60,809 bases of DNA from Phyllobates terribilis (taxonomy: Eukaryota). The notes beneath the pieces were generated by a model that worked only from the letters and a program-made list of their open reading frames with translations, had not been told where the DNA came from and ran no database searches. Numbering within the stretch: position 1 is the first letter of the stretch; each line of letters starts with the position of its first letter. Position numbers and translations under genes: made by a program. This document shows, one piece after another, positions 9,814-59,292 of this stretch. The stretch lies in assembly GCF_046119375.1 (NCBI RefSeq), contig NW_027367200.1, positions 1 through 60,809 of the forward strand. Direction: 5' to 3'.

Positions 9814-10516
9814 ACGCTAGAGGAGTACTCTTTTTCCTACTCTTCCGGATTTTTCCTAGAGGTTTTCCGGAGGAAAAGTTTTAACGAGGTCTCGGGGTAT
9901 TTCTTACCTTAAGACAATTAGTGTTTCTTATTCATCCTATTGCATGCTACATTGTTATGCTTATATTTGATTTTGTTATTTGGATCTTTGCATAAGTTAT
10001 TATCACAGGCATTGTTGATTATGTATGGATATTCATATTGTTTCCAAGAGCAACGCACTTTTGATTCCATGTGCGAATACCAATGGTGTCGCCTTGTGCT
10101 TTATATTATTATTATCATCTCATAGCGACAGGATCGGATTTAGTCTAGTCACATTGAGTGCTCACAACACCGGTGGATTGTGACCTACACGTCCTGCGTT
10201 GGGGCACAAGTAGGAGAGCCGTGACCGACGCCATACGCGATTACACATACGGTTAGCACATCCGATGTGAATACGGTCATTGTTAGGCGCAGCCGCTAAA
10301 TTATAATCCATAGTTCTTCACTCTAAATTCTCTTGGAACGGACGTTGGGAGCAATGTGACGATATCTAAATTCGATCCATTAGTTCATCAATCTTGGGTA
10401 GGCATCCGACTAACCGTGGCAAGGATAACGCCCCACCTAGCACGTGAGCTTATGTGGTTTTTAAGACATTATTTCGGGTCTTAAGTCCCCAGACATTCAA
10501 AACCCGATGGGCAAAT

Positions 10517-13800: not shown

Positions 13801-15890
13801 ACTATGAGGTTGCTTTTAGCTATGTGTGATGTGTTTGGTTGGGAATTAGAACAAATAGATGTGAAAACTGCTTTTTTACATGGAGATTTGCATGAAACCA
13901 TTTATATGAGGCAGTCTAAGGGTTATGTAGATAAAACTAAACCTGACTTTGCATGCCTATTAAATAAATCAATTTATGGTTTAAAACAATCTCCTAGACA
14001 ATGGAATATGAAATTTGATTCATGTATGAAAAACTTAGGTTTTCATAAGAGCAGTTATGACACTTGTGTGTATTTTAAAATTGTTAAGTCTTCATTTACA
14101 TTATATGTATTATTGTATATGGATGATATTCTGTTAATGTCTAGCTCTAAGGTTCTTATTTGTGGTGTGAAAAAGGGACTTAAAGGCTAATTTTGACATG
14201 AAAGATTTAGGGAATGCTAAGAGGATTTTAGGAGTTAAAATCATGAGAGATAGGAAAACTAAAACCATGTGGTTATCTCAAACTGACTACTTAGTAAAGG
14301 TTTTAGATAAGTTTGGTATGACGGATTCTAAGCCTAATTTTATTTCTTTAGGTGGACACTTAGACTTAACTGAAGATCATTGATGTTGGATCTATTATGT
14401 ATGCCATGTTATGTACCAGACCTTACTTGTGTTTTGTTATTAGTGTATTGAGTCGTTTTATGTGTAATCCTGGTGATATTCATTGGAATGCTATGAAATA
14501 TGTGCTTAGGTATATTAATAGCATAAAAGAATTAGGTTTAGTATATTCTGAACATACTTCTAAGGATGAACTTGTAGGATTTGTGGACTCGGATTATGCT
14601 AGTAAAAAATAATGTGAAGTCTACTACTGCTTATTATTTTACTTGGGTTGGGAATTCTGTTTCATGGAAGGCCGGAAGGCCCAACAGAAGTATGTGGTGG
14701 CTCTATCATCCACAGAGGCTGAATATATAGCAGCTACTGAGGCTGCTAAAGAGGCAATTTGGTTAATTGGTTTACTTAATGAGATCTCTTGTAAGTCTTA
14801 TACTCCTGTTTTGCACATGGATAGTCAGAGTGCAATTTATCTGTGTAATGATCCTGTATATCACGAGCATTCTAAACATATAGATGTTAGACACCATTTT
14901 ATTAGGGATTTGATAGACAAGAAATCCTTAATGGTCAAAAAGATCAAAGGTGATTTGAATCCCTCTGACTTTGGAACCAAAGTTATTCCAGTTGATAAAT
15001 TTGCTTATTGCATGAATGTTTTACACATATGGGACACACATTGATTGGGCTACTGGATGACGACGGATGAGAGCCGCACTCCACTCCCTTCCCCGGTGGT
15101 TTAACTATGTTCTACAGTTAGGGTAATGAAATGTTTAAGTAAATCAAGGGGGATTTGTTGTGTAATTGATTCACTTAAGTGTAACACTTGTAACACAATG
15201 CTAGCTTAGGTCATGGGTCGTATTTAGGCCCAACAGAAGGGAGAAGCCCAACCCATGTCAAATGGAGTGATGCCTAGGTCGGACCAATTGTGGGCTTGTT
15301 GCTCCGTGTAACCTAATGAAGAGTTGAGGTATTTAACCTCCTCTTCGACACCGTAGCCTTCACTTGTTGTCTTGCTTTGTCGTTTCCACAAAACCCTAGT
15401 AGAGAGAGTTGTGAACGGTGATTGGTGATCTATGTCTTCTCCGGTGCGAGTTTGTTCAAATTTGGGCTAGTTCTTCGAGTCTCTCCTTTGTAGAGCTAAG
15501 CCGTTGGTGCGAAGCTCTCTTTGGTGGTGAACGGAGGCCTATTCTGGTGGCGCGTAGAAGCCACGGGCTGGTGTTCGGCTCCGTCGGTGACGCTCCAGAA
15601 GACGAAGGGTTTAAGGGAGTCTTCTTTCTTTCTCTTTGGTTGAATCTTGTGTGATTCTTTTGGCCGAGGCTAGTGCATGTGTTTACTGTGTATTGCTACC
15701 TTGTTTTGTATCCTCCTTGAACGCTTGATTTCATAGTGGATTGACACTCAATCTTGAGGTCCGCAGATGTAGGACTGTTTGTCCAAACTGCGTAACAAAT
15801 ATTGTATTTTGTGATGGCTGATTGAGCTATGTTACGATATTTTGGCTAAATCCACTTTGCATGTTCTTGTTAATTATATACTCCTGTAAT
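10875..15890 (+). mobile_element. Decayed Ty1/copia (Tnt1/Tork-like) retrotransposon, 5' LTR missing
   Basis: gag (FYGTRDFSIWQVK...RLSDDVARQV), protease (WILDSGCTMHVT), pre-integrase (LWHTRLGYIG), integrase (TDNGLEFC...PQKNGTAE), RT (YEARLVAKGF...DVKTAFLHG...YMDD) and RNase H (STEAEYIA...HSKHIDVRHHF, ending 15044). A PPT (AAGGGGGA) precedes TGTTG at 15156. The right end is approximate. Confidence 0.9.
15156..15890 (+). repeat. 3' LTR of the copia element
   Basis: Starts TGTTG right after the PPT and contains GATGTAGG...CCAAACTGCGTAAC, typical of copia U5. The exact 3' end is uncertain (between ~15797 and ~15891). Confidence 0.65.
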
Positions 15891-22000: not shown

Positions 22001-25000
22001 GTGCACAGTACTCAGCAACAGCATCTGCTTAAAGAACCTGATCATCATACACACCATGATTAGTTTCAAATGGCACAAAAAATGTGATAAAGTTTCCATC
22101 TTTATGTAAAGCCCACCTTCCAACTTCAGGGCTATATCCAATGACATAGTAAGTTATAGATGTCCAAACAACAGATTCCACCACGGATAACGGAATCTTC
22201 ATAATGGAGGCTGGGATAGTACAAGCCCAAGCTGGATATAAGTACAAATCTCTTTGTTTGAAGAATACTGGAAGCCTCATTACAGTGAGTCCAGCCTCAG
22301 GGAATCCATCAACAAGAAATACTATAAGTGTATAGAACAAGACTCCAAGGTAGTAATTTGAGTTCACAACATCCACTCCCAACCGAGTTCGTAGGAACAA
22401 AGTCATTGATATCAATGCAACAATCACTAGCTGCCCATCACAATACAAGTTGTTACACATATACTTACCATACAAAAATAGAATTAGGTTCCGCTGAAAT
22501 TAGACCTTAAAATGCGAATCGCTATTCAAATAATGAACATAGAGTGTTAAACTATGAATATAGAATATGAATTTGTGAAGCAACTAAAAACGAAGGGAAA
22601 AAATAAATTTTGACTCATTTACAAAATTGTCAGCGCGTCACTTTTTCATCACTTTTGGTCCTTTTTAGTAGGTTCACGAATTCATACTCTATGCTCACAA
22701 TTTAATACTAAATGTTCATAATAGGTCCGGCTGCGAAATTTTCGCAATTTATGGTCTAATTTCAGCAGAAACTTAGCATACAAAAATAATGTGTTAAGAG
22801 AGTATTGACTCACCTGAATGATCTTGAATACGTATACGAAAGAGTTCCTCTTCATTAAAAGATATTCCCTTGACATACAAGCCTTTAGGAGCTCCCACTT
22901 GGGCAAAGAATACACATTAAAGGAGATTGCTTTGTCGTTACGCTCTGATTTAATATATGGTTGAGAGATTTCAGTATAAAGTCTCCTTCCAACATTAGAT
23001 TCCTTGAATTTCTGACAAAACATATCAACTGAGACAAAATTGTAGCTTTGATCATTATGAAACCAGTACTGTTCTTGATCCTTCCTTGATATCACCTCTT
23101 GAAGAAAGTCGGCTACACCCTTTCTTTGTGGACATTTAAATCCACATTCCTCAAAGAAATCAAGCACAGAAATACGAGGTCCGTGGTAAATGATCTTTCC
23201 TTCAGCCATTAAAATTATGTCATCAAAGAGATTGAATGTCTCAGGAGCTGGCTGAAGCAATGCAATTAGAGCAGTGGCATCGGTTATATGAACAAGTTGT
23301 TGAATATATGCAACTATCTGAAAAGCAGTTGAGCTGTCTAATCCGTTTGTTATCTCATCCATTAGTAAGGCTTTGTTTGGACCAACAATCATCTCCCCTG
23401 CATAATTTATTTTGTGTTATATTACATAGTAAATATTGATGTTAGTTTGCATTAGCAATTACAATTACCTGATGTCAATCTCTTCTTTTGACCACCTGAT
23501 ATACCTCTTCTCATAGCGTCACCAGCGATGGTGTCAGCGCACACATCAAGACCAAGAATCTGCAATATCATCAACATGACAAGGACAAGATTGATTGACA
23601 AAAAATTGTATTAGTTAGAGTACGATCAATTACCTTTAAAATATAATCTGTTTGTAGTGTACTCTTTAACCCTTCAGCAGATATCGCCTGCTCAATGTGC
23701 AAACTTAGTAGTTGATTAAAAAACACAGAACCCATGAAATAAGGAAATTTTATCTCAGCTTACCTTCATATAGGCATCAATATCAGGATCTGGGATAATG
23801 CCTGCTTGTTTCTCCCTTCTGCATAGCTCAATCATGATCTCTTAAAGAGAATAATGCAAAACATCATATGTTACTATCAATAGTGTAATATAAATAATTT
23901 AATGTAACAAGAAAAGATTAAATATGGTACCTGCGCGGCTTCCAACTCCCTGACAACGAGCAGAAAATTCCAACGTTTCTCTGACTGTGATCTCAGGAAT
24001 GTGAAGGTCATACTGGCTCACATAAACTGAATTCTTCTGTGGAACCAGTTCATTCAGCTTGTAACCGTTGTAAGATATGTCTCCTGATACCTGTCAACAG
24101 TATTTTTATATGTGTTTGATCAAAGAGCATCATATCAGCAGAGTATAGAAAATGTATGGAAAAGGGTTCAATGGTAACCTTAAGAGAGTTGTTCATGTTT
24201 CCAGAAAGTGCCAACAAAAGGGATGTTTTTCCACATCCTGGTGGTCCAAGCAACAGAGTTAGCCTGTCAAAATATGCAAATTTCATAAATGTTTTGTTTA
24301 TGCAATTTTTCCTACATTCATATTTTTAGTTTTTTGAAACAAGGATCTAATGAAATTTGTTCCAAATTTTCATATGAGCATAACCTTATTTAGTAATAAA
24401 CTTCAAATGTGGTATAAAAAAAACTTATTTAGCACTAAACCAAGTTGATGATAGACCTTCCAGGCTTTATTAGTCCAGTGACGTTTTCGACGATGTTTAT
24501 TGTTGCTTCTTGTGGTCGAGACCCTACTAGCTTAGTGAATACCTGTTCAGAAGTTAATCAATTAAAATGAATGATTTATGGTTTACAGTAATGAAAAAAT
24601 ATACAGCATAAATTACTTACTGATAGTATGTCTTTCAGAGAATTCCAAAGAGTTGGAAGAGGCTTTCCATCAACCACTTTGCACTTTGCTTCCACACAAA
24701 GATTGTCATATCTCACCTCAATACAAGGTAACTTTATTCCAGCTCTACATGTAAAGAGAAAAGGTTGTTTTAACAAAAACTGGTTTACTGGTGAATTTTC
24801 TGCAAAAAATGTGTTAAAAAAAATGCATATGAAAATGGTGATGAACTTACTTGTCAATTCTTTTTCTGAGTTTGCGCAATAGGCGCAAATTATCAACTTC
24901 AATCTGTTTAAGAAGGCGTTCGACAAATAGATGACGATCCAAAGGTCCAAGCTGAGTAACATCAATCACCCTTTTTCCTTTGGTGTTTGTACCATTTTCT

Positions 25001-25206
25001 TCATCGTCAAACAGAAAAGCTCTTGATCTTTGATATGTTGGCAGTCTCTGAAGCTCTGCCCATTGTTGAAGGAACTCATCATCAACAGCATCCTTTGAAG
25101 AACCGAAAGAAGAATCGCTTCGAATACTCGAGTTTTGAAGCCTAAATGATGATCTGAAGGTTCTTAAAGCTTCTATTTCAACTGCATCAGCCAGCTGATC
25201 AGACAT
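16010..25206 (-). CDS. PDR3: Full-size ABCG / pleiotropic drug resistance transporter (PDR3/ABCG37-like), 22 coding exons, ~1431 aa
   Basis: Exons 24851-25206, 24621-24744, 24457-24542, 24179-24263, 23931-24090, 23764-23840, 23634-23687, 23469-23559, 22814-23397, 22117-22430, 21877-22037, 21685-21788, 21414-21567, 21226-21333, 21085-21158, 20668-21000, 19971-20261, 19815-19898, 19603-19736, 19275-19502, 18502-18928 and 16010-16276 all have GT-AG borders and sum to 4296 nt in frame. Motifs: Walker A GPPGCGKT and GVSGAGKT, signatures ISGGQKKR and LSTEQRKR, Walker [10 protein letters not shown] and [11 protein letters not shown]-terminal KLNFQRR. The subfamily label comes from remembered similarity, not a search. 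Confidence 0.95.
16497..16700 (+). mobile_element. 5' end of a non-autonomous Helitron in the last PDR intron
   Basis: A|TCCATTTATATAATAAAGGAGAG... aligns over about 200 bp with the 5' end of the Helitron at 53002-54516. The 3' hairpin/CTAG was not found. Confidence 0.65.
18987..19264. mobile_element. Tourist (PIF/Harbinger)-like MITE, family A, in PDR intron 20
   Basis: Starts GGTTCCGATGAAATTAGAC and ends ...TTAAGATTTAATTGTAACACAAAC; flanks TCA/TTA; body similar to 22487-22772. Confidence 0.7.
22487..22772. mobile_element. Tourist-like MITE, family A, in PDR intron 9
   Basis: About 33-bp TIRs (GGTTCCGCTGAAATTAGACCTTAAAATGCGAA / TTCGCAATTTATGGTCTAATTTCAGCAGAAAC) with a TTA TSD on both sides. 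Confidence 0.85.
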
Positions 25207-29622: not shown

Positions 29623-30962
29623 CTTTCTTGGCCAAAATGATACCTAATAGACAAGTGAAAGAAAATAGATTGTTCATCGAATGCTTGTGGCTTCAAGATA
29701 TATGCATAACAGTATATTACACATCAGCAAAGATAATGACCCTTCAAACTTCTCAAGCCTAGTGCTGAACTGAGCGTATACAACCATTTGACAGCTCAGC
29801 TTTGCTAACCAAGCAACAGCTAGTGAATTTTCAGCGTGGGCAGACTAATTACATTCATAAACTGGTCAAATTCAAACAAGTTTAATGAATTTTCTAAAAT
29901 TAAGAGGTCTATATAGCCCCATCCCTGCCCATAGCAGCACAAGTATGACCAATTTGTTGACAGGAAACATCAAATTTTAACACCAATGCAATTAAATCAA
30001 GTCAGGGCAAAAGCAAAATAGGACCAACTCAATAACCAAAAACATAAATGAGCAAGCTTTAAAATGGCATCAATTTGCCTACCTTCTAAAATGGAGTACC
30101 AAGGACACCTCCAGAACACCCAGATCTCAGTGAGCTAAAAAGTTACAGCACAAATGGAGCAAATGGAGAGGAACATATGCAAGATCTCTGAATTGCAACA
30201 GTTAAACATCTACAGAGAAACCTAATTTGGCAGATGCAGAGGTTATATGGTGAATAAGTGGATTTGGCTTGTTGGGTAGTTTTCGTGTTGGGGAGCAAAT
30301 GGAAAGCCGAATCTAAGCTGGAACAAAGCCTTGTCAGAGCACACCTGGGCTCTCATTAAAAACCCTAAGTACACATGAGCAAAAAAAACAATGACGCTAT
30401 AAGATTGACCTGTAAATTTTGACAGATCTCAAAGTTTGGGGTATTAGGAGAGAGAAAGAGATAGGAGTGGTGGTTTGGGAGGGATTATCGAAGAGAGGAA
30501 GACAGACAGGAAGGGAATGAGACAATTCGCGTAGCAAACGCTAAAAACAGTGAAAGTAAAGTGATTTGTGAATTCTGAAGTATACTTTATTCTCTCTCTT
30601 TTCTTGATTTCACAATATGTTTGATTGCTTATAGTAGAGTAAAAATGGGATTAGTATTTACATGTAATAATTAGGAAGATGGTTGTACATTTGTTCCGTA
30701 TGTATACAGTCATCAAGGTGATTAGGCGGGCTTAATGCAGAGTATCATATAGAATATCCTTGATATCCTCCGAGAGTTACATGGCATGATGGCGAGGAAG
30801 GCTAGATGTGTTTTCATATTTTTTTTGTTTATTTTTTTAATGAGAAAAATATTTGAATATTTTTTTGTGTTAAAGAAGTGTGGAGCCTCCTCCGTATAAG
30901 TTAAGTAAAAAATATTGAAATAGCTAGATTTAAAAAAGTAATCTAATCTATATTATCACATT

Positions 30963-31604
30963 CAGTGTTCTAAAAAACGCGCCTAGGCCCCGCCTAGGCG
31001 CTAGGCGGCACCTTAAAGTTGCAATTAATTGGTAGGCGTTTTCAGCTAGGCGATGAAAAAAATCGTCCGCCTACGAGGCAGTCTAGCGCCTAGGCTCCAC
31101 CCAGGCCCCGTCTAGGCGCGTTTTTTAGAACACTGGATGTAACAGAGGATGATTTAGATGAAGATAATCATGAGTTTGAGCTTGATGAGTCTGACAATGA
31201 GCAAGAAGTTAATGTTCAACTTGAGGAGGATAATGTGAATGAATAGATGGAGGATTAAATTATATTTCTATTTTATTAAGTTGAAATTTGCATTGAAAAC
31301 TGAATGATTTTTGCTTGTTGTGGTTTTGTAGATCTTCTTTATGAAGAATGCTATAAATTCTGTGAAATTTCGATGATTAATTAGCAAATTATATGCTTAT
31401 GCTAAAATGATATAATTAAATTATGAATTATTATGAAAATTATGAATCAATATATTTCTCTTTAACTTTTCATATAAGAAAATTATATTATAATATAAAA
31501 ATAAGTGTTATAATATTGATCTGTCTGAGCCTCACTTAGGCTCCCGCCTAGCGTCTAAGCCACCCTCACCACCTAGCACCCGCCTAGCGTTTTTTAGAAC
31601 ACTG
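30963..31604. mobile_element. Non-autonomous hAT element with 8-bp TSD and an extra internal right TIR
   Basis: Left TIR CAGTGTTCTAAAAAACGC at 30963; right TIRs GCGTTTTTTAGAACACTG end at 31135 and 31604. The TSD ATCACATT lies at 30955-30962 and 31605-31612. Subterminal CGCCTAG(G) repeats are present. Confidence 0.9.
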
Positions 31605-31980
31605 ATCACATTCATGTCAAAGAGAGCCCTGCTTCATCTTGAAAAATTATGTTTTATGTATTTATATTAATGGGTTGATTTGTTCATGTGTCAATAAGAT
31701 ATTTTTTCATCTTTTTAACGTCTTATACTACTGATTAAAAAATTAAAGCTAAAATCTCTCATAATTTCGATCAGTCATACGTGTTCTTCACAAGTTTTCT
31801 TCACGTCCAATGTTTCATTTTATAGGACAGAAATATGAGTAATATATATATTTAGAATCCTTCGTACTAGAGTTAAATCCTATATCTATTAAAAGTAATA
31901 TGCAGAGATTCGAATCCATATATGTGAGGGTATGCTAAGCAGTAAGCATATCTGTCCCACTAGATTAGAGGCTCCTTGAT

Positions 31981-32446
31981 TGTTGAAGTCCAAGTTTCTA
32001 GTAGAATCAACACGTTTTGACGAGAGGCTTAGATTCACTCTTGACTTTTTTAGCTGAGGGTAAAGACGGTCCAAGCTTCCAGAGTCCGAAGTGCTCGTCG
32101 ATCTGTCTGCAAAAGTCCTCGACGATGTACCTGCACGACCAAATCTAAGGGAAGGGGCGCTTCCTCTAGATTTGACTCTCCAACACTCAAGTCAGTAGCA
32201 GTTCAATAGAGGAGTAGGTGTTACGATTAGTGCTCGGGTATGGTAGGACAATGGAGTACTTTTGGCTCTGAATTTCGGCAGAGTTTTAGTACGTGTGAGA
32301 AAAGTGATCCCTCCTCCGTGTCATATACCTTTGTATTTATAGGAAAAGCTATTTGGGCCGCCATTTGATGGGCCTTTTTCCCTTTTCTCTTATTTCGGGC
32401 CATAAATCTATTAAAAACAAACCAGACTGAGGGACCTGCCCCAACA
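31981..32446 (-). repeat. 3' LTR of the Retand element
   Basis: On the element strand TGTTGGGG...CTTCAACA, 466 bp, with TATA-like CTATAAATA; aligns end to end with 43051-43498. Confidence 0.95.
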
Positions 32447-32765
32447 TCCAGCCCCACAAGGTCCTCGAGTACCTCTTACTCAAGGGTAGTGTGCCTTCGC
32501 TGGTCGAGGTGAGGTCTCGCGAGTCCGTGCTGATCCTTGATAGATTTATGCTCGACGAGGGTTTAGTATTACTTACCTGGAATCGGCTTCCTCTATACTG
32601 TTGATTAGATGCTCGACGAGGCGATGGACTGCCGTTCCTCGCCCACCTATGACGAGTTGCGATATTTGTGCCCCCACTCACTCTTTCTGGTACCGTTTTC
32701 CTTCTCGCGCCATTTTTTTGAATTTCCTAAAGAGAACTGTTTTTGGCGGGCTCCCACCTCCTCTT

Positions 32766-32820
32766 CGCCACGTGTCGTGTCAGGGTTTGCCGACACTTCA
32801 TCTTCCCCCTACTATAAAAG
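32766..32820 (+). promoter_or_regulatory. Internal antisense promoter: G-box/ABRE (GCCACGTGTC) and TATA (CTATAAAAG)
   Basis: CACGTG at 32769-32774 and TATAAAA at 32813-32819, followed by a CT-rich leader and ATG at 32993. Confidence 0.55.
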
Positions 32821-32992
32821 GGGACCCTTAGCCTTTTCCTTTGCTTTTTCACTGTCTCTCCAAACTTTCATTTCCTTCGCTCTCTCCTCTTCACCAGTTT
32901 CTCCGGCAATACTCCGATCTTCTTCCTCCGGCGTCCGCAGAACTTCCTTTGCTTCCTCTTCTTCGTCAACGTTCACTTCTTCGTCTCCATCC

Positions 32993-35854
32993 ATGGCGCG
33001 TCGTGGTTAGTACTTTCCGTCCTTCTCTTACCTTTTCGAATTTCATGCTAGTTCTTGATCTTGTTCTTGGCGTTTTGCTTATTTTGATCCTTCCCTATGC
33101 GCACTCGTATCTTGTATTCTTGTTTTCTTACGTAAATCTTGTTCAATCGAGAAATGATCAACTCCTTTCTACCTTGATGGTTAAAAACCGATCGTCGGGC
33201 CAACCTGCCCTTTTCAAATTCCTTATTGCCATTGATGGCGGAGGACAGACATTCTCGCCATTAATGTCTGTTTCTTGAAACTCTGTGGGAATTCTGTTTT
33301 AATGGCGGCGTGGGTTTTTGAAACGTCTTTTGGGGAAACACACCGCTTCTGTCAGAACTCTTTTCCCCCCTTTCTGTCTTATCACCATAAATGCCTCTGG
33401 TCGGCTCCATAGACAGGACTTTACCCTTTTGCCCTTCTCTCTTTTTGCCCATGTCTTTCTTCTTTTCTTTGTTCTTGGTCTCAGTTCTCGAGGTACCTCG
33501 CGAAGGTTCCACCCTCTCGTCCTTCCCTCTAGTCGACGAGAGTTAGTTTTTGAAATACACTCTATTTCTCTTCGCGGGGTAACTTAGGCCTCGAGGACTA
33601 ACTTTCTTTATTTTGTAACAGCTCAAAGCACCTCCTCGGTCCGAGACTCGGAGGTGAGTTTTCGAGAAACCGGCTCTTCCGCGGAGAACTCATCGTCAAC
33701 AGTATCCTACCGCCCTGTTTCCGGGGACGAGGACTGGGAAGCGCAATCACCGGACGAGGCTGGGCCTAGTACTCAAGAAGCCGCTCCCCCAGCTACGACC
33801 CGTATTTATGATACTTTTCCCCCAGCACCCAAGCCCGTAATGATCGACGATGTGGTTGTGCCTTCCGTTGTTCCCGCTCGATCCCCACGCGTGCTCATTC
33901 TTGATGGGCGTATCGCCCCCGTTCCTTGCATCGTCGAAGGGTATAACATAAGGGTCTCGACTTCAACGGCCAAACCCCGCTACTTAGTAGATTACGCGAC
34001 CGAGTTTCCTTTCCCTGCTGGGACGGTTTTGACTTTACCGATTAACAACGGGAAGATGCTCGACAACTACGGGCCTTACTTCCCCATTAGTCGCCATGCT
34101 CTGCTCACGGGCTTTCGACTACCACTCGCACCATTCATTCGAGACATTCTCGACGAGCTTCATCTTAGCCCGTCGCAAGTCCATCCTAACTTCTTGAGGC
34201 ACATGACTGCCTTCCAGCTCAGATGCCAAGAGATCGGCTATGTCCCCTCCGCTCATCTCTTTCGCGTTCTGTATAAGCCTAACATCTATACTTGGGGCTC
34301 GTTACCTGTACTTGCATGTACAGTCCTGTCCAGTATAGGATGCCTGGTAACGAGACTGGGTGGACTCGTCGATGGATTTTGGTTAAACCTCCTCGGGCGC
34401 ACAGGGTGAATCACCGCGTCCGTGTGTCTAGGGTCGCCGAATGGGAGACGATGTACTCGTCCGAACAGCTCCAAAAAGTTAGGGAGGATTTCTGTGCATT
34501 TCGCAAATTAAGTCCTAACCGATACAATGATATAGTGACTATTGACTTCCTGGCTCGGCGAGGGCTTAGCTTGATTCCTCCTCATAGTAGTAGGGGTTCT
34601 TTATACCAATGCTAACTCTTGTGCTTGTTACGCTTATGTACTTTCTGACTTGTTTTCTTGGTATTGCAGAGGAGTGCTTTGAATTTGTGAATATAGAGGA
34701 TGATGAGGACCATGTGGTGCCTCCACACCACCAACAATCTCACATCATTCAAACTCAACCCAACGCCGAGGAGGCCCGTCTCCCACCGATAGAAGTCCTT
34801 CCTAAGGACGACATTCCCATCTCCGAGCATCTAAAGAAGAAACGAGCTCAGACTTCGAAGAACACCTCTCACGCTCGTAAGAAACGCATCGTCGAGGGGA
34901 GGGCAGCCGACCCATCGAGCTCAAGAGGGACGACCATGAGCCCTACCCCCTGAGTGTCGTCAAGGTCCCCTCGAGTAGAAGCTCTGGAGGCTTCCTACTG
35001 ACCCTCGAGCTTTCCGACCAACTCCTCGGCCGGGTCATCCCAATTCCTTCGCCCCCTCCCATCATAAGGAACATGACCGAGGACGAGGCTGTTGTCGAGT
35101 CTCAGCTGGTGGCAGGGGTAACTTTCCTTGATCTTCTTGGTCTATGTCTTCCTTTGAAATTTTGCTAACAATCTTCTCCCTTTCAGGTTATCCACCTTGC
35201 CATGGCTGTCTTGGCAAAAAGTAACAACTGATCTCAGCGAGCATCGGCCGAGCTGAGGCAGAGTTATGGGGAGCTCGAAAGAACTGTCCAGGATCTAAGG
35301 ACATCTGTGAACCGGGTCCAAGAAGAGGCGGACAAGGAGAAGGCAGCCCTGAGAGCTTCTCTAGAGGTCATGGAAAAGTGTGTCAAAGAATTGGACCTCG
35401 AGCTGGAACTGGAGGCCAAGGAGAGGAAAAAGGAGGCCGAGGGGAAGAAAAAGGTGGAAGGCGAGCTTGAACAGATGGTGAGAGACCAGGAAAAGTTGCT
35501 CGAGCAAGCCTGCCAGGAGGCTATCAAGCACTACGCCTCCGGTCATCGTGAAGGAGCTCGGCAACGCTACCTTGCGACATATCAAGTGAACACCTTCTGT
35601 GAGGTAGCCAAACGCCAGGCGGCCGAGCAAGGTCTCCCGGACTTCCAGATTGACAACTCGAGGTTGTATGGATTCCCTCTAATTCCTACCGAGTATGTAC
35701 CACCCCCCTTGGAGCCTATGCGATGGATGATGATAGGACTCTTGAGGCGTGGAACGTGACTACCATCCCTCCGGTGAGTGATCCTGCTGAAGTTCATGAG
35801 AAGGAAATTCCGCAAGGTGGCCGAGCCTTTGCGAGAGTTGCTCGTGCGATGTAA
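32993..35854 (+). pseudogene. Spliced antisense accessory gene of the Retand element (Transposase_28/DUF390-like domain plus coiled coil), now frameshifted
   Basis: Predicted introns 33006-33621, 34587-34669 and 35118-35186 are all GT-AG and phase-compatible, and the latter two have GCTAAC branch points. Motif GFRLPLAPFIRDILDELHLSPSQVHPNFLRHMTAFQLRC; basic stretch LKKKRAQ...ARKKR; heptad-rich EEADKEKAALRASLEVMEKCVKELDLELE. The 3' end is approximate. Confidence 0.75.
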
Positions 35855-36399
35855 GCTGCAGCGAAGACCTTGGCGGCTCCTCCTCACACCTCTCCAGTCC
35901 CAAAACAGTGACAAGGATGTTTAGACATATGCTTGCTCGATTGTAATTTAACTCTGGTTTTTGCCACGGAACGTTTGTGAACCCATGTATGATTGTTAAC
36001 TTAATGTTTATTTTCTCTTATTTATTCTTGTCTTCCAAAACCTGGCCTGCCACCCCCTGCCTTTTCGACCATACATCGTATGCGAGGAAAGGTATTGCCC
36101 GAGGTTGTGGGTGTTAATAAGTAGATAAATGAGCGAAAATAAGACTGAACGTTGTATTGAATGAAATAGTGAGATAACATGACAAATTGCCACATGATAA
36201 CGTGGTCAAGTGCGAGTCGACATAAAAGATGTTCGTAAGACAAGTACATTGCATAAAGTAAAGTGTGTTGCAGTATCATGTTCTCGGGCTACATCATTTT
36301 TATAAATATGCGCGCTAGCCCTGTAACCCTTTGATATTGCTTTCGAGTGCCTTGTGTTTGTGGAAACTGCTTTCACTATGCATTATGTTGTTGCCCCTT

Positions 36400-37150
36400 A
36401 TATGAATAACTGTGACTGTTTCTGGGTTGTCGTGCCCCAAGTACGCAACCTTATATAGTAGTGGAGTCTGATCATCCCTGTGTTTCAAGGTATAAAAATG
36501 TGTTAATGCTCTTCGAGTCATGATCGGGAGATCGTCGAGTCATGCTCGGGAATAGCAAATAGATTAAGGTATGTACCTCGTACGTAACCGTGACTGGCTC
36601 GGGGTCGTCGTGCCCCAAAGACGCAGCCGTATATTGAATCTAGTCATCCCTGCAAGGCAGAGGGTAAAAAATGTATTAATGCTTCGTCGAGTCATGATCG
36701 GGAGAACATCGAGTCATGCTCGGGAATATCAAATAGATTGAGGGATGTACCTCGTAAGTAACCGTGAATGGCTCGGGGTCGTCGTGCCCCAAAGACGCAA
36801 CAGTATATTGAATCTAATCATCCCTGCAAGACAGGGGTAAAAAATGTATTAATGCTTTGTCGAGTCATGATCGGGAGAACATCGAGTCATGCAATAGAAA
36901 TAGATTGAGGGATGTACCTCGTAAGTAACTGTGACTGGCTCGGGGCCGTCGTGCCCCAAAGATGCAGCCGTATATGGTGTTTAGTATACTCATCCCTGTG
37001 TAAGGGGGTAAAATTGCGTTAATGATTGTCGAGGCATGCTCGGGATTAATGAACATCGAGTCATGCTCGGGTTTAATAAATAATTTTAAGGTGAGTACCT
37101 CGTAAGTTTCCGTGACTGGCTCGGGGTCGTCGAGCCCCAAGGACGCAGCC
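36400..37150. repeat. Tandem array of ~173-bp units (about 4.5 copies) in the Retand 3' region
   Basis: The unit anchor TCGAGTCATGATCGGG recurs at ~36513, 36687, 36860 and 37029 (degenerate), with a recurring GGCTCGGGG(T/C)CGTCGTGCCCCAAAG. Confidence 0.85.
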
Positions 37151-37390
37151 GAATGTTAGTTGCCATTGCTCTTATGTGGTCGAGTGAGTGTGGCTCTCTC
37201 CCTGGTACCATGTTAGTTGTCAAGGCCTCGACGAGCCTTAACTTACTGCCTCGCCTATTATGCGCGATTAATGTTATTCTGTGCCTAACATATATAAGGC
37301 GAATAGAGTATGTGCATCTACCCGAGTGCTGGAATATTAAATAGGTGTGAGTGAAATGGGAGTGTACCTTATTGGCGAGGCGTTTAGCTG

Positions 37391-40300
37391 TTAAGGATAG
37401 TGTTTGCGGAGTTGCATCACATTCCACGAGTTTGCGATGCGGTTCCCAGCACTATCCTTGAGTTTGTAAGCCCCTGGTGCTACCTCGGCCTCAACGATGT
37501 ATGGCCATTCCCAATTGGGGTCGAGCTTACCCCCTTCCGTCTTTCGCATCACCAAATCTCCCTTTACGAACCCCCGAGGTTTCACCTTTTTGTTGTAGTA
37601 CTTGGCTACAGTGGCCTTGTGGTTAGTCGCTCGTATGGTCTCTAGCTCACGCGTTTCTTCTCGAAGTTGCAACTCAAGCGCCATTTTCTCTATGTTCTCA
37701 ATCTCGTCATACTGGATGACCCTATCTGTCGGGAAAAGATGCTCAACGGGGACCACCGCCTCGACTCCATACGCGAGAGAGAAAGGTGTCTCCCCTGTGG
37801 CTTTCTTGACAATTGTCCGATTTTCCCATAGCACTAGGGGCAACTGCTCGGCCCATAGCCATTGAGCACCATCTAGTCGCTTCTTCAAATCTGTAACAAT
37901 GCTCTTATTCACTGCCTCGACTTGCCCATTGCAATGAGGGTGAGCCACCGAGGCAAACTTCAGCCTGATACCAAGATCCTTGCATCACTCGATGAGCTTT
38001 GGTGTATTGAACTGTGGCTCTCTATCCGTCACAATATCTTGCGGAAGTCCATACCGGCAGATGATGTTTTGCCACAAGAACTTTTGCACGGCTTGGACTG
38101 TCGTACGAGCTAAAGGTATCGCCTCGATCCACTTCGTGAAATAATCGATTGCGACAATGATGAATTCGAGTTGCCCTGGTGCTTTCGGTGTAAATGGGCC
38201 TAACAAGTCTAAGCCCCACATGGCGAAAGAGAAAGGCCCCGACATTACTTGCATCTCGACCCCTGGATGGTGACATGCCAGAGCGTGAGCGTGATAGGCT
38301 TTACACGATCGTGCGATGGCCATAGCGTCATCACGCATAGATAGCCAGAAATGCCCGTGGCATAGTGCCTTGAATACCAGGGATCGCCAACCCGCATGTG
38401 TCCCACACAACCCTGCATGCAGCTCGACCAACATTTTGTTGCCTTCTTCTTTCGACAAGCACCTCAGTTCCCGTGACATTATCCCTCATTTGTATAGTTC
38501 ACCTTGGCAAGCAAAGAACCGCGAGGCCTTGGTCTGAAGGCGCTCCCGCTCTCGTGGATCCTCTGGAATGTTCGTTTGCGCAAGGTAGTAGAGTATTGGA
38601 GTCCTCCAGTCCTCGACGACGGGTTGATCAATGGCCATTAGCTCTAACTGCTCGGAGATAGATTTAACGGAGGCGGTATTAAACTAGATCGGCCGAGATT
38701 TCCCCACCTGCCGCACGTCGATTAACTGTTCCCTAGACACAAGTTTGGCTAGCCCATCAGCCTGTTCGTTCTCGTCGCGTGGGATCGCAGTAATGAGAAA
38801 ATTCTTGAACATCCCACGCAAACGCGCCACATGCGCCTGGTATTGTGGTAGGGTGCGTGTTCGCGCCTTGTATACGCCCTGAACCTGCTGGACGACCACC
38901 TCGGAATCGCAAAAACACTCTATCTCCTCCACCTGCTCTTCGAGGGCGATCTCGAGCCCAATGACCATCGCCTCGTATTCTGCCTCGTTGTTTGTTGCCT
39001 CAAAATCGAGTGTTATCGCATGCTCGTATAGGTCCTCCTCGGGCGAGAACAGAGCTATGCCTGCTCCGCACCCATTATTGTTGACTGCGCCATCCATAAA
39101 AAGCCTCCACGGACTCGGCGATAAGCAAGAGGACCCTTCGCTGCCTCGGAAGCTGGTTTTGATGATGAAATCTGCTAATGCTTGGGCCTTAATAGACGGT
39201 CGAGGTTGATATTCAATGTCGAACTCGGAGAGCTCGACGACCCATTTCGTCATTCGGCCTGACAGGGTTGGTCGATAGAGTACAACTCGTAGCGGGAGGT
39301 CTGTGAGGACCTATATGGTGTGGGCGTGGAAATACGGCCTTAGCCGTCGTGCCGCCATGACAAGTGTGTAGACCGTTTTCTCGACTGGTGAGTAGCGGCC
39401 CTCTGTGGGTGAAAGAGCTTTGCTAACGAAATATATGGGCTTCTAATGCTCGCGGACAAGGACTGCACTGGCTGTCCTCGAGCTAGCTGCGAGATATACC
39501 TGTAACACTTCTCCGGGAACAGGCGACGAGAGGGTAGGAAGATTAGACAGGTGCTCTTTGAGACTTGTGAATGCCGCTTCGCACTCCTATGTCCACGCAA
39601 AGCTCTTTGGTTTCTTTAGTATATCGAAGAAAGGAAGGTTACGCTCGGCAAGCTTCGCGCAAAACCTCCCTAGATAATTCCCCGCTCCCATGAATCTCTG
39701 TACTTCGTGTACCGTTCGTGGTGGTTTCATGTCGAGCACTGCCTGAATCTTTGAAAGGTTCACCTGGATACCCCTCGAGTTGATCTGGAATCCCAAGAAC
39801 TGCCCCTCGGTCACTCCAAACACACATTTTTCGGGATTGAGGCTCATCCCATACCGACGCAGCGTGCTAAATACTTCTTGGAGATCCCTCGGGTGATCCT
39901 CCTGGTGCCTACTCTTGACCACAATGTCGTCCACATAAGCCTCGATAGTCTTGCTGAGCTGCTCTCTGAACACCTTGTCGACGAGCCTCTGAAAAGTCAC
40001 TCCCGCATTCTTGAGGCCGAAAGGCATAACTCTATAGCAAAAGGTCCCTCTGCCCAGCATCGGCGGGGTTCATTACAACTTGGTTGTACCCCGAATAAGC
40101 GTCGAGGAAGCTTAGCGCCTCATGCCCCACAGTATAATCGACGAGCTGATCGATTGAGGGGAGAGGGTAACTATCCTTCGGGCATGCTTTGTTCAGATCT
40201 GTGAAATCGACGCACATGTGCCACTTGCCAGTACCCTTCTTGGGGACCATCACCACGTTGGCCAGCCATGTTGAATACTGGATGGATTGCACGAATCTTG

Positions 40301-42996
40301 CTTTAAGCAGCTCGGCCGCTGCTACTTCGTTCTTTGGGCCTGCTTGCTTTCACTTCTTCTTCCTTTGGGGAGTAGCTTGGGGGTCGATGGCTAGGGAGTG
40401 AGTAATAATTTCTGGAGGTATCCCCTTCAGGTCTCGAGGAGACCAGGCAAAGACATCCCTCGAGGCCCCGAGCATAAGCTTTATCTCTGCCATTACCTTT
40501 GCGCGAAGGCCCTGGCCTACATACAGGTTTTTTCCGCCCTTGTCAAATGGTGATATGCACTGCCTACCCACATCGACGGCCTGTGAGAGGTCCTCGCTCC
40601 CCGAGCCTGACCTTCTCTCTTCTCGGGGGTCGAGGTCTGCTTCCTCCTCAGTTCTTAGTGACCCGGACAAGCAAAGGTGGTTTGTGTGAACTGGCTTCTT
40701 GTCGTTCTGCTCAGCCTGTATGTAGAATTTTCACTTTCCTCTTGGTTTCCCCTCACGATGCCTGTACCGCTCGCCGTTGGGAACTTCAGGCAAAAGTGGC
40801 TTATAGACACGACCGCCTCGAAACGCGTTAGGGAGTCTCGCCCAAGGATGGAGTTATATGAAGATGCCAAAGGGATGACTAGAAAGTCAATCGGGCAACT
40901 TCGTCGAGGGCCACCTTCATCCCCTAGTATCATGTCGATCGTTGCCACCCCCAGAGCCTTTATCGAGTCCCCAGTGAACCTGACGAGATTTGCTTTTGTT
41001 GGGCGAAGGCGTGAGGCATCCAACCCTAGTCTTTGATAGGCGTCCCAATAGATGATGTCTGCCGCGCTCCCAGTGTCCACCATCACCCTCTTGACGACCT
41101 TTGTCCCTAATTGGATGTGGGCGATGAGAGGGTCGGTCCTCTTGTTGACCCACTCGACGACGTCCGAATCTGTGAAGCTCAACTGGTATGGGTTTTGGGT
41201 CGATTCAGTAATAAGTAGTATCGGCTTTCCCGAGGGAAGAGGGGCGTTGTTGGCCCGCCTCAGATCTCGTCGACTAAGAGATCGGGGTTCGTGGCAGCCA
41301 GTTATTATTCCCACAAAGCCATCCGGCTGAGGGAATTGTGGTGGTGGGGGGACAGGTGGTGGTAGTTGGTTAGCCTGTCTTCCTTCTGCTCGTCGAGCGG
41401 CCATGACGCGTCTGTCCTCCTTAGCGCCTCGTTATACAGGGTTCGACACTCAGCGGTCGTGTGGGTTCGAGTGCGATGTTTTTCACACCACACTAGTCAC
41501 TGCGGCCTTGCTTGTCGCCCGCGGACTGGTCCTCTTTGCACTGTTGCCACCATTGCTTGTACCGGGAACTGGGTCTGATTTTGGTGGCCCTGGGCTTGGA
41601 GGGCCGAGACCCTTGGGTGCTGGTCCGCCTGACGTTTGGGCCCCCATGGTGCATTGCCCTTTTGAGCACCACCATGTGTATGCCCTTGCTTCTTCGAGGG
41701 CTCGGCCCCATTGTTCCGGCCCGTTATTTTATCGGACTCAATCTGCCCGTACGCCTTTTGGGGCATGCGATCGTAACTGAGATACATGTCCCTGTCGTTG
41801 ATCTTTCGACCAAGCCTGTCCTTGAAATCAGAGTCGTCGAGGAGACCCCCGAAGAAAGCTTGTCGAGCACCATCCTCGGTGAAATCATGGGCCTCAAGCG
41901 CTATAGTGGTGAACCTCTTCACGTAGTTCTCTAAACTCTCGCCCACCTTCTGCTTGACGCCCTGTGTTTGTAGCATTGTCACCTTGCGCTTCTTAGAGGC
42001 GCTAAAATGGGTTACGAAACGCTCCTCCAGGTCGTGGAAGTTTTGGATTATCCGTTTCGGCAGAGACAAGATCCATGAGAGTGCGGTTCCAGACAGAGTG
42101 TTCGGGAATCCCTTACACATGGTGGTGGCGTCAGCATTGCACGCCAGCATGGCGTACCTGTACCGGTTGATATGGTCTCGAGGGTCTTCACGACCAGAGT
42201 ACTCCTTCGAGGTTGGGTATTTGAAGTTGTCGCACACGGGGGTGTGGATAATATGATCTGTGAAGATGGTTGCCCCCCGTGAGGTTGATCCTTGGCTGAA
42301 ATGGTGGTCATGGTTAGGAGCAGGAAATGGGTTATACGGGGCTGGTGGGCGAGGCCCCATATGTTGCTCATGGCTATAATGTTCAGGTTCATAGCTGGTG
42401 TACGGGTGCGGGTTTAGGTGATGCTCGACGACATTTTGGACATAGACAGGTGGTAAGGGGTGTTCATGTTGTCTCTGCTCGTGCAACATGGATGGTATAT
42501 AAGGCTCATGAGCTCAGGAGGGCGGACACCGAGGTTCAAAAGGTTGCGCGGCCGGACGCAGGTTGGTTGTTTGTGGGGCCTGGGGTACGTGAGGGTGCAC
42601 GAGCTGATCGTCGGGGTACATAGGGGGAGCTGAGTGACGACCCTGGCCACGCGATCAAGCATTGCGATGAGGTTCAGGGTCTAGGCGGGTGAGCTCGCGT
42701 TCTCTTGTGACCCGTGACTCCTCGTTCAGCCTGGCCAGTGCCATCTCATCATGCTGACGCTGCCGTCCCTCTTCCTCTAGCCGCAGGCGCTGCTCGAGCA
42801 CCTCGTGTTGTCGTTTAGTCACTTGGAAACGTCTGAATTCATGGAACTCGGCCATGTCAGTGGTGATAGCGACATTGCGACTCCGCTGAGTGGTGGCCTC
42901 CGCAGATGCGTTACCCAGTCGTGAGCCAGCCTCTCGACGCCTCTCAGGGGCGCTGTTGTTGCGGCGTCTACTTTGTGTTGTGTTCTGGCTAGCCAT
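37391..42996 (-). pseudogene. gag-pol remnants of the Retand element
   Basis: gag (YSGREDPRDHI...FPNTLSGTALSW), protease (VMVDTGSAADII), RT (WHMCVDFTDLNKACPKD, YVDD), additional RNase H (WRLFMDGA...NNEAEYEA) and integrase (WGLDLLGP...NGQVEAVNK), broken by frameshifts and stops. Confidence 0.92.
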
Positions 42997-43029
42997 TCGA
43001 TACTCTGTGTTTGCTTAGTTGTGTGAGAG

Positions 43030-43049
43030 GTTCTCCACGATCGGCGTCA
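43030..43049 (-). other. Degenerate primer-binding site (tRNA-Lys-like)
   Basis: The element strand reads TGACGCCGATCGTGGAGAA 1 bp after the 5' LTR, resembling the TGGCGCC(C/G)..CGTGGG PBS of Tat elements. Confidence 0.55.
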
Positions 43050-43050
43050 G

Positions 43051-43498
43051 TGTTGAAGCCCAAGTTCCTTGTAGAGTCAACACGTCTCGGCGAGAGGCTT
43101 AGATTCACTCTTGACTTCCTTAGCCGAGGGTAAAGACGGTCCCAAGCTTCCAGAGTCCGAAGTGCTCGTCGATCTGTCTGTACAAGTCCTTGACGATGTA
43201 GGGGGGGGGGCTTCCTCTAGATTTGGCTCTCCGACGCTCAAGTCAGTAGCGGCTCAATAGAGGGGTAGGTGTTACGATTAGTGCTCGGGTATGGTAGGAC
43301 AACGGAGTACTTTTGGCTCTGAATTTCGGCAGAGTTTTAGTACGTGTGAGAAAGTGATCCCTCCTCCGTGTACTATACCTTTGTATTTATAGGAAAAGCT
43401 ATTTGGGTCGCCATTTAATGGGCCTTTTTTTCCCTTTTCTCTTATTTCGGGCCATAAATCTATTAAAAATAAACCAGACTGCGGGACCCGCCCAAATA
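43051..43498 (-). repeat. 5' LTR of the Retand element
   Basis: 448 bp, colinear with 31981-32446 except for a ~19-bp deletion; the terminal TG is mutated to TA. Confidence 0.95.
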
Positions 43499-45330
43499 TT
43501 GATAATAATATATTACTTATTTGACTTTGGTTTTTATCTACTGAAAAATATTCGCATTAAATAAAATATAGATACATATATATTGATCTCTCAAACCTGT
43601 TTTAGCGAAGTATATGGGATAGATTCTTATTGTGGTTCTCATAATAAGTTAGATACTTTAATGTTTTTTCTTGACCTAGTGCAACATTTTCATGAATTGA
43701 CCTCTTTCTAAAGTATAATTAAATTGAGGCACTAAATCCGTATATTGTCGTACATGTTATATCTCTTAAGAAAAAGGGATTTTATTATTTATTACTCATA
43801 GAGTTATGAATAAGACATCAAATATAGAAATTTATTTAATTAAAAGTTTATAAAATTATTATATTTTATTTATTTGTGATACTTTAAGTATATAATTCTT
43901 CATAAACAATTTAATGATTTATTATGTCTGGATATTGATAAAAGTGTTAAGAAATTAAATTCGAGGGTGAAAATAATAATCCCATCAAAATAAAAAAAAA
44001 GTGTTTTTAATCTTTTTTGTTGAGACGATAAATAGTAAACTTCGTACAAAAAGAGAGAAAACATGTATTGTCTCCATCTTGATTCCTAAAAATTTCTATA
44101 TACCTTTCCAAGTTAATTCAAAAGCATCTTATATCTTGCTCAGTATTCGATTCTGCCTCCTTTATTTTTTTTTTTTTTCTAAAGTTCGATTCTCCTTTAT
44201 GCTGTGACGAGCTATCGTGTTTGGTTTGTCGGGTAAAATGGAAACAATAGAATAATCTGATCTTATATTGTTGGTTTTGTAAATTTAGATTCGTCTGACA
44301 ATATTAGATAAATTTTATTTTTCATTTAGACGAAAGATGGTAGGTGAATTAAAAGGTAAATTTATGTAGATAAATTTTCTAATTAATTTTCAATATTGAG
44401 GATGAATTTTTTTATTCATTTCATGAAAACTTAATAAGATAGATGAATTGAGCTTTTAAATTCATGTAGATGAATTTTGGGGATAAAATGGTTATTTCAC
44501 AAGGACCATCTTTTTATTTAATTTTAAATACATTCATTTAGATGGATGTAGATTGTCGAATGGAGCTTACTGCAATATCAATGTATCATATATCAATGTA
44601 GTTAAATCCCTAAATCTATGTTTCATAATCCTACCTTTACATTTGAGCTGACCGACAGTGTTCTACTACTGATATTTGATATGGGTGTAAGAATAAACAA
44701 AAATGATAAGAACGGCTAAATGTGGCTTTATTTGAAGGTTCAGTGGATTGTAGATTGATCATATTATACTGTTTTTTTAGCGGCATACATGATTGCTTTT
44801 GTTCTTCGGTTCATATTATAAATTTTTAATGGCTGTTTGATGCTTTTTGGTGGTCAAAAATAGGAACAATTTTGCTCAAAAGGATATATGTGGGGAACAT
44901 AATCATTGATTTATTTTAGTTTTTGTTTTCTAATAATTAGACTTAATTTAAAACTTAGATACATGTAAGAATTATAATTTTATACAAATTGTTATATATC
45001 GTACTTATTTTTAAAATAATACTTGAACTCAACAAACAATAAATATTTAAAATATTTTATGTAATTTATATTTGTATGTATCTATATACTCAAAAAATCG
45101 GCATCACGTTGTAAATGATAGCTAGTACTATTTAATTCATATTTTGTAGCATATATGAACCCCTACAAGTATTTGAAATGTAGTTGAAAAACTGGTTTGT
45201 TGTGCAAAAAACTAAACACCACCCGTATAATAACATGTTGCGAAATCCGTTGATTTCCACACATCAAAATGTGTAATACTGGTAAAATACAAACATCAAT
45301 TTTTAATTGTAGATATAATTTAAAAGGTGA

Positions 45331-58807: not shown

Positions 58808-59292
58808 GGCGGTTAGGGCGGCGGAGGGAGTGAGAGAAGAGAGTGAAAATGAGAGGAAGAAAGCCAAAAGGGGAAAAAAGTGACAACCCCTGGAATTAAA
58901 AGGGGGAGAGATTTTGAGTGCGCCACATCAGGACACGGATAAAGGAGTCACCAATTATCTCCTACAGAAGAACTTTTTTTCAATATATAATCACTTTTAT
59001 AAACTTGTTTCCCAACCTAATCGCCCCTTTAAATTATTTCCCAATCTACTAATTCCAATTTTTGGTCTTTTCCAATATTTTTACTAAATTACAACTTAGT
59101 TTAATAGTTTTTCAACTTGTAGAATATTATCTGATCTAGAATTAGCTTATAATTCATTAATGATTTTTAGCAGTACTTGCTAGTTACTATCATACTCATA
59201 ATTTTATATTAAATATATGTGTTGGTGATTTTAGTGTCATCAACTTTATTTTGGTAGAAATGTGATTTACAATTGAGACCGATGAAATTACA

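Follow-up and report, generated by a model that had tools for sequence, protein, structure and literature searches.

The antisense TRP28 (PF04195) gene on the plus strand of a minus-strand Retand-type element (31981-43498) is very probably a spliced gene of four exons that opens with a coding micro-exon, judging from how splice sites and reading frame are conserved among the copies of its family. The element lies in the window (the whole stretch of 60,809 nucleotides analysed here), which is Caryophyllales-type plant DNA; the host looks like a plant of the Polygonaceae, and the organism label probably belongs elsewhere. Purifying selection acts in the family on all three large exons of the gene. 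Throughout its length the element is dotted with copies of the palindrome TCG-N-CGA, which makes self-recognition by the antisense protein more plausible, and from the sequence we put at even odds that this Retand protein, likely nuclear, binds the palindrome.

The anatomy of the element is as follows.

31976-31980, unstranded: left target-site duplication TTGAT, 5 bp, read from the sequence
31981-32446, minus strand: 3' LTR of 466 bp, TG...CA, with 416/446 aligned bases identical to the 5' LTR
32447-32460, minus strand: polypurine-tract-like stretch adjoining the 3' LTR, shared by all 8 other copies whose LTR pair is full
36030-36120, plus strand: conserved non-coding hairpin-forming block 3' of the antisense stop (alignment fold z -5.1 on the plus and -2.9 on the minus strand)
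36386-37157, unstranded: tandem array of ~174-nt units between the antisense gene and pol
37391-42513, minus strand: decayed gag-pol with gag, protease, RT, RNase H/aRH, integrase and SH3, from Pfam
43033-43049, minus strand: primer-binding-site-like stretch, read from the sequence
43051-43498, minus strand: 5' LTR
43499-43503, unstranded: right target-site duplication TTGAT, 5 bp, read from the sequence

Pfam gives the order gag-protease-RT-RH-integrase on the minus strand, with a weak protease match (E 0.034) in which the DTG motif is present. RVT_3/RNase_H matches fall at 38687-39310, between RT and integrase, and the RVT_3 match we take to be the additional RNase H (aRH). The position of 32447-32460 suggests that it serves as polypurine tract. 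A search of Rfam returned no match anywhere in the element. The two LTRs differ by a K2P distance of 0.071; plant DNA accumulates ~1.3e-8 substitutions per site per year, which gives a rough age of ~2-3 million years for the element. The region from pol to the 3' LTR measures about 4.9 kb, and both the array and the antisense PF04195 domain lie inside this region. The published Retand ranges are 2.9-6.6 kb from pol to 3' LTR and 315-1194 bp for the LTR, with a 5-bp target-site duplication and frequently a tandem array (PMC11963269), and the element, with its ~4.9 kb, its LTR of 466 bp, its TTGAT duplication and its 174-nt array, falls within them. Domain order, aRH, antisense TRP28 and sizes match the Retand lineage (Ty3/gypsy, Tat) as described in PMC11963269 and PMC6317226, and would place the element there by sequence. 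Pfam and the LTR anatomy agree with an earlier sequence-only reading of this DNA, which had proposed a Retand-type element with a separate antisense gene between the 3' LTR and pol. Membership in Ogre was considered and rejected, as an ORF of 893 codons spans protease to RH in a family copy and leaves no intron or spacer between protease and RT.

A search of the assembly at the DNA level gave 45 matches, and out of these 39 other loci were examined. Most counts below refer to a set of 33 copies that includes the window copy and leaves out L033, L038, L039 and L040 (rearranged or truncated) as well as L010, L014 and L034 (5' end missing). The splice-site counts refer to the 31 other full-length copies, with L025 also left out. 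The gene model comprises these features.

32767-32776, plus strand: G-box/ABRE-like motif GCCACGTGTC, its CACGTG core in 27/33 copies
32813-32819, plus strand: TATA box TATAAAA of the antisense gene, with TATAAA in 29/33 copies
32993-33005, plus strand: coding micro-exon 1 of 13 nt, ATG at 32993, length 3n+1 in 34/35 ATG-bearing copies
33006-33621, plus strand: intron 1, phase 1, GT-AG, with a highly conserved block at 33475-33600
33622-34589, plus strand: exon 2, encoding an acidic S/P/T-rich N-terminus and a globular domain of ~220 aa, with a frame break near 34290
34092-34277, plus strand: PF04195 domain (Pfam, E 4.6e-10)
34590-34669, plus strand: intron 2, phase 1, directly 3' of the globular domain, its donor moved from 34587
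34670-35117, plus strand: exon 3, a linker with a bipartite basic NLS-like stretch at 34831-34887, with a frame break near 34945
35118-35186, plus strand: intron 3, phase 0, GT-AG
35187-35911, plus strand: coding part of exon 4, a predicted helix of ~140 residues and then a short tail, ending at the family stop 35909-35911

Promoter motifs, TATA box, ATG and 13-nt first exon are all present as the sequence-only reading had described them. The leader of ~150 nt is free of ATG in 30/33 copies, and several diverged families keep the positions of both motifs, with the G-box ~40-50 nt 5' of the TATA box. This positional conservation of G-box and TATA makes an internal promoter likely. An ABA-responsive promoter needs an ABRE together with a coupling element; one conserved G-box/ABRE was counted in this promoter, and it is from that motif alone that a stress or ABA response might be read. 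Across the 37 copies that cover the start region, the GT donor is present in 37/37 and the ATG in 35/37. Among the 35 copies with ATG, 9 have a micro-exon of 13 nt, 9 of 16 nt, 16 of 19 nt and 1 of 20 nt, so that phase 1 is retained after it in 34 of them. Six loci of diverged families have a micro-exon of 7, 13 or 16 nt, and introns 2 and 3 lie at the same places in diverged families, which share ~53-73% identity in the exon 2 domain.

The remaining splice sites, too, are kept in most copies, beyond what chance would give [acceptors 1, 2 and 3 retained in 26, 29 and 28 of 31 copies, donor 3 in 29/31]. Introns 1 and 3 and the phases 1/1/0 stand as originally read, but the donor of intron 2 lies at 34590 and not at 34587: the former (GTAGGG) is retained in 28/31 other full-length copies and the latter in 20/31, with GC for GT in most copies of one subfamily. 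We therefore rejected the less conserved donor, a change that leaves the phase unaltered. Introns 2 and 3 contain 8 other GT/AG pairs, not one of which is conserved to 85%, while in intron 1, which holds the conserved block, 14/50 attain this level. An RNA-structure reading of that block was rejected, with fold z-scores of -1.5 and -1.0 against column shuffles. Gaps common to >=3 copies are multiples of three in 17/19 exon cases versus 10/53 intron cases (Fisher p 7e-8); private exon gaps are so in 8/71 only, as decay after insertion would lead one to expect. All three introns are present in 33/33 copies, and in 2/33 the spliced reading runs uninterrupted from the ATG of the micro-exon as far as the family stop (706 and 716 codons). 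The end of the gene was formerly set at 35854, and this had to be revised: the TAA at 35852-35854 is private to the window copy, and the family frame continues to the TGA at 35909-35911.

When subfamilies are compared pairwise, the proposed plus frame gives a dN/dS of 0.14-0.17; four other frames give 1.2-1.9, and the antiparallel shadow frame gives 0.27-0.28. In the plus frame dN/dS is low in 8/8 sub-regions, among them the N-terminal part of exon 2 that comes just 3' of the micro-exon. For the same pairs, dN/dS is 0.147 in the antisense gene, 0.073 in its domain and 0.097 in an open stretch of pol (101/105 pairs). The sequence-only reading had proposed looking in the family for an intact spliced ORF with dN/dS below 1; with open copies found and a dN/dS of 0.15, both are there. 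The window copy itself is dead and unable to make the protein, because it carries three frame breaks (near 34290, 34945 and 35712) and two private stops (35229-35231 and 35852-35854), in line with the loss of function already suspected.

The introns appear to be old. A distant TRP28 family, here family B, has a phase-1 GT-AG intron at the end of the domain. We scored 149 homologous proteins, of which 55 reach the domain end, and 28/55 stop within 30 aa of it, often after Gly and a hydrophobic run; in these homologous proteins, seen apart from their DNA context, the pattern suggests a phase-1 intron that has been read through. Of two named Euphorbia isoforms, one has 25 aa more than the other, a phase-0 insert immediately ahead of the coiled coil and approximately at the position of intron 3, in an alignment guided by X marks at both junctions. 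New retrotransposon copies are made from the gag-pol strand, on which antisense introns are not splice substrates. The antisense introns are thus kept through every cycle, because copying uses the opposite strand, where they are invisible to the spliceosome.

The Transposase_28-like domain seen in the sequence-only reading is confirmed by the Pfam match to PF04195, and it forms part of a globular alpha/beta domain of ~220 residues that is net basic and is modelled with a pLDDT of 80.6 and a pTM of 0.81. An HMM search for TRP28 homologues gave 360 matches at E <= 0.001; word-based protein searches with the family sequences gave no match. The domain has no PDB match by sequence, none by Foldseek and none in viral models, no match with a wide structure aligner (best Z 3.7) and no match to any solved DNA-binding fold; for a modelled domain, this lack of a match in fold searches does not prove a new fold. 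An Atlas search, started from a homologue, retrieved plant clusters that were either unnamed or PF04195, and no others. The basic stretch proposed as NLS-like is indeed bipartite, and was matched in 14/33 copies when read without frame correction. Exon 4 is predicted to form a single long helix, so that the earlier reading is supported as to a long helix but not as to SMC, an ATPase with an ABC-type head and a hinge, there being one long helix only and no SMC family among the Pfam matches. The order of domain, basic patch and coiled coil recurs in named Diospyros, Euphorbia and cotton proteins; in cotton, the TRP28 domain of a host gene is joined to a PHD-type finger. A pairwise BLAST of exon 4 against the Diospyros homologue was not significant.

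Identity with PMD (PF10536) was rejected on comparison of profiles, as hhalign of 83 TRP28 against 19 PMD sequences gave a probability of 0.1%, and PF10536 is not among the families listed for the 83 TRP28 members (25 of 28 families). VANC factors carry a VANC/DUF1985-type domain and act by sequence-specific binding and loss of methylation in trans; the domain is likewise not among the families listed for the same 83 members (25 of 28 families).

The palindrome that we consider as candidate target is found throughout the element.

31981-43498, unstranded: palindrome TCG-N-CGA, 25 internal sites and 2 per LTR, from motif counts

In the internal region the word CTCGA is found 88 times, against 26.5 predicted by dinucleotide content. 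It heads the 5-mers of six other copies, and neither the other Tat-type element of the window nor the host DNA has it among the top words. The half-site CTCG is strand-symmetric (108 vs 100 on the two strands). The palindrome is enriched in the window copy (25 observed vs 5.4 expected) and in 8 other copies (178 vs 34.1), with a peak only at spacer 1 and no comparable spacer among 0-12. TCG-N-CGA exceeds synonymous-codon shuffles in 7/7 coding sets, on both strands and in both of the oppositely oriented genes. Outside coding DNA it is found 65 times versus 6.3 upstream and 26 versus 3.1 in intron 1, as sums over 33 related and so not independent copies. At four-fold sites, the CG bases of the motif are kept at 0.63-0.75 vs 0.38-0.45 for other CG (15, 15 and 21 sites). 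TCGACGA and TCGTCGA double as CGA/TCG tandems, and the non-tandem TCG[GC]CGA is enriched too. Site numbers in 20 further TRP28 loci are 6-23 for the 13 closer and 0-4 for the 7 distant loci, and four very distant TRP28 loci have none. Family B shows weak enrichment (16 vs 10.2), a CTCGA ratio of 1.16 and a shifted word set, with no sharp replacement motif found in it; family B and the distant copies are more decayed. The weak palindrome in distant families fits a changed target.

In the mechanism that we propose, the internal G-box/TATA promoter would drive antisense transcription, the pre-mRNA would be spliced to a four-exon mRNA, and the TRP28 protein would enter the nucleus by means of its basic stretch and dimerise through the long helix. 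The dimer could then bind inverted CTCG half-sites, that is, TCG-N-CGA, along its own element, and an effect in trans might leave the family able to be expressed, for instance through protection against silencing. A specifically anti-silencing role is a tentative suggestion from sequence. The fullest form of the idea is likewise rather doubtful: the spliced antisense gene of Retand would encode an ancient dimeric self-recognition factor of unsolved fold, binding a palindrome that each family has seeded through its own genome, coding regions included, and guarding that family in trans against silencing, as an independently evolved counterpart of VANC in LTR retrotransposons. A nuclear accessory role would fit the work on maize gene23 of Grande, as given in the accessible text of PMC7264820.

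The protein of a genuinely spliced gene may instead act on RNA, the virus-like particle or the pre-integration complex (export, packaging, nuclear import or integration targeting), with the palindrome bound by a host factor or due to another cause, and this we regard as possible but on the whole unlikely. Rev-like or import roles have been proposed in reviews (available part of PMC7264820), an NLS with a long helix would be in keeping with a scaffold, ATLANTYS products are reported to have a chromosome-axis-like architecture (accessible text of PMC13547354), conserved hairpin-forming non-coding blocks are present, and family B has a TRP28 gene without a sharp palindrome. However, strand symmetry and fixed spacer suit a dimer on double-stranded DNA, the palindrome is strong in the 13 close loci but faint or missing in the 7 distant loci and in the other Tat-type element of the window, and with a promoter of its own the gene is uncoupled from the making of particles. 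It is improbable, though less so than the reading discussed last, that a nuclear regulator restrains the element by copy-number control or recruitment of silencing, or that the antisense transcript acts via double-stranded RNA. Roles for antisense RNA have been proposed (PMC7264820, in the part available), host genes have adopted the TRP28 domain, as in the cotton PHD fusion, and the TE-related host factor MAIN acts in silencing (PMC13547354, in its accessible text). A role of RNA only is ruled out by protein-level selection that is as strong within the domain as in pol; for a restraining protein, the sequence cannot tell the direction of the effect.

Least probable, and very much so, is a reading in which the exons are ORFs independent of one another and lineage-specific mutation or codon bias has produced the palindrome as a by-product. 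The palindrome does favour one codon frame in gag-pol, yet it is also enriched upstream and in intron 1. Intron 2, of 81, 84 or 87 nt, is stop-free in 13/13 copies examined of one clade, where read-through is possible, but its in-frame pN/pS is 0.70 vs 0.21 in the flanking exons, and on these values we rejected the notion that it is strongly coding in this 3n clade. Donors, branch points and acceptors are conserved, changes in the micro-exon preserve phase, and the introns are U-rich and vary freely in length modulo three, all of which argues for splicing over separate ORFs.

If the gene is spliced and starts with a micro-exon, surveys with ORF finders catalogued fragments of the TRP28 gene, and in tests on these ORFs the true N-terminus, the NLS or the helix was missing. 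With the exon model the whole protein is defined, and in the palindrome there is a concrete candidate DNA target. Should binding to the palindrome prove true, LTR retrotransposons would be shown to encode sequence-specific regulators of their own, as VANDAL DNA transposons do.

In the genomes of many flowering plants Retand elements are abundant, and a TRP28 ORF is retained by nearly all those that were active recently (PMC11963269). The survey of these ORFs (Vicient 2025, PMC11963269) found, as here, an antisense TRP28 ORF located between pol and the 3' LTR, for 97% of clusters, together with a lengthy stretch from pol to 3' LTR, a tandem array, predicted DNA binding and coiled-coil ('Smc') matches. 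It differs in that ORF Finder was used, separate ORFs were counted and the word 'intron' is absent, whereas our model is of one four-exon gene with a micro-exon, with selection measured and a candidate DNA target, and describes a fold unit of ~220 aa where the Pfam core has 69 aa. Gene23 of maize Grande (Gomez-Orte 2013, via PMC7264820) is also antisense, with its own internal promoter and a nuclear product; the accessible text of PMC7264820 mentions neither introns nor a target motif for it, and calls for a search for antisense and spliced transcripts. A bean Retand with extra ORFs has been described, with no splicing of them in the available part of PMC13392006. The antisense TRP28 ORF (PMC11963269) and, as far as the accessible text of PMC7264820 goes, its own promoter and nuclear product are already published. 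In the literature covered by our search, to which two key older papers (Gomez-Orte 2013 and Steinbauerova 2011) did not belong, neither introns in the TRP28 antisense gene nor such a motif are reported. The exon structure of this known gene is apparently unreported, and the palindrome is a testable candidate target.

Ogre shares with this element the Tat clade, an aRH between RH and INT, extra ORFs and a spliced intron inside the element, but the Ogre intron lies in sense orientation, between protease and RT, and PMD is found in the extra ORFs of Ogre (PMC6317226, in the part available), whereas the introns here are antisense and a family copy is open across protease-RT. The Arabidopsis ATLANTYS accessory protein, reported to resemble ASY2 and found from long-read transcripts (PMC13547354, bioRxiv 10.1101/2024.04.02.587720, both cited from their accessible text), has a globular domain and a long helix, so that the architecture agrees; its orientation and exon structure are not stated in that text of PMC13547354, and its globular domain may be TRP28. 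A possible analogy is with VANC of the VANDAL DNA transposons, a coiled-coil accessory protein that recognises short motifs accumulated in its own element (accessible parts of PMC12844716 and PMC13547354, with further background in that of PMC12859917). VANDAL belongs to another class of element, and TRP28 is without profile similarity to PMD, the domain that VANC is reported in these parts to resemble. The motifs of VANC lie, by the same accounts, in non-coding tandem repeats, whereas TCG-N-CGA, a candidate target from sequence, also runs through coding DNA. A short motif accumulated in the element itself is present here as well.

The window copy of the element looks mosaic over the antisense gene (32993-35911) when its parts are compared with the subfamilies: its 5' part and pol are similar to one subfamily, intron 3 and exon 4 to another. 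This pattern is what template switching would give.

We found that intron 2 (the equivalent of 34590-34669) has a length of 81, 84 or 87 nt in one clade of the family and is free of stop codons in all 13 of the 13 copies examined, that its translation is a hydrophobic run, and that pN/pS is 0.70 when it is read in frame. An isoform retaining intron 2 is possible in that clade, with support that is no better than chance.

Conservation in the element extends to non-coding sequence. A block within intron 1 (33475-33600) shows pairwise identity of 0.83-0.86, which is above that of the exons, and it contains CTCG half-sites and one full TCG-N-CGA palindrome; a folding signal was looked for in this block and none was found. 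Two further conserved blocks are hairpin-forming on the plus strand, one at 36030-36120 (alignment fold z of -5.1) and one at 33295-33395 (z of -3.4). Two-sided changes are few in both, and neither has a match in Rfam.

The whole window is flowering-plant DNA, with 94% identity between the gene at 57452-58927 and a protein from Rumex. The short contigs that carry the Retand-type family may be plant DNA within an assembly (G000) of foreign origin, and this would account for RNA runs under the assembly's own label having come up blank. On one contig of that assembly (G000:C4644:13113-21480) we also observed seven tandem PMD-domain matches spaced at about 1.3 kb.

Elsewhere in the window, two similar repeats (512-1165 and 24442-25113) are 85-88% identical and lie 23.9 kb apart, with ABC transporter exons and the following elements between them:

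about 4100-10400, second Tat-type gypsy element
11299-14190, copia fragment

A short inverted-repeat element lies in 30958-31600, with arms at 30958-30998 and 31100-31140 and a similar end near 31590; a sequence resembling it sits within the intron 2 position of the locus L095, near 3100.

The TRP28 domain is also found outside this family. In a distant TRP28 family (loci L104, L105 and L146-L160) the phase-1 intron at the domain end is kept and the second intron differs, an ATG lies shortly upstream of the domain, and the enriched words are CGACG/CTCGTC, not CTCGA. In a cotton gene conserved among Gossypium species (proteins P0075 and P0152-P0165), which is probably a domesticated copy, the TRP28 domain and a coiled coil are joined to a PHD-type finger.
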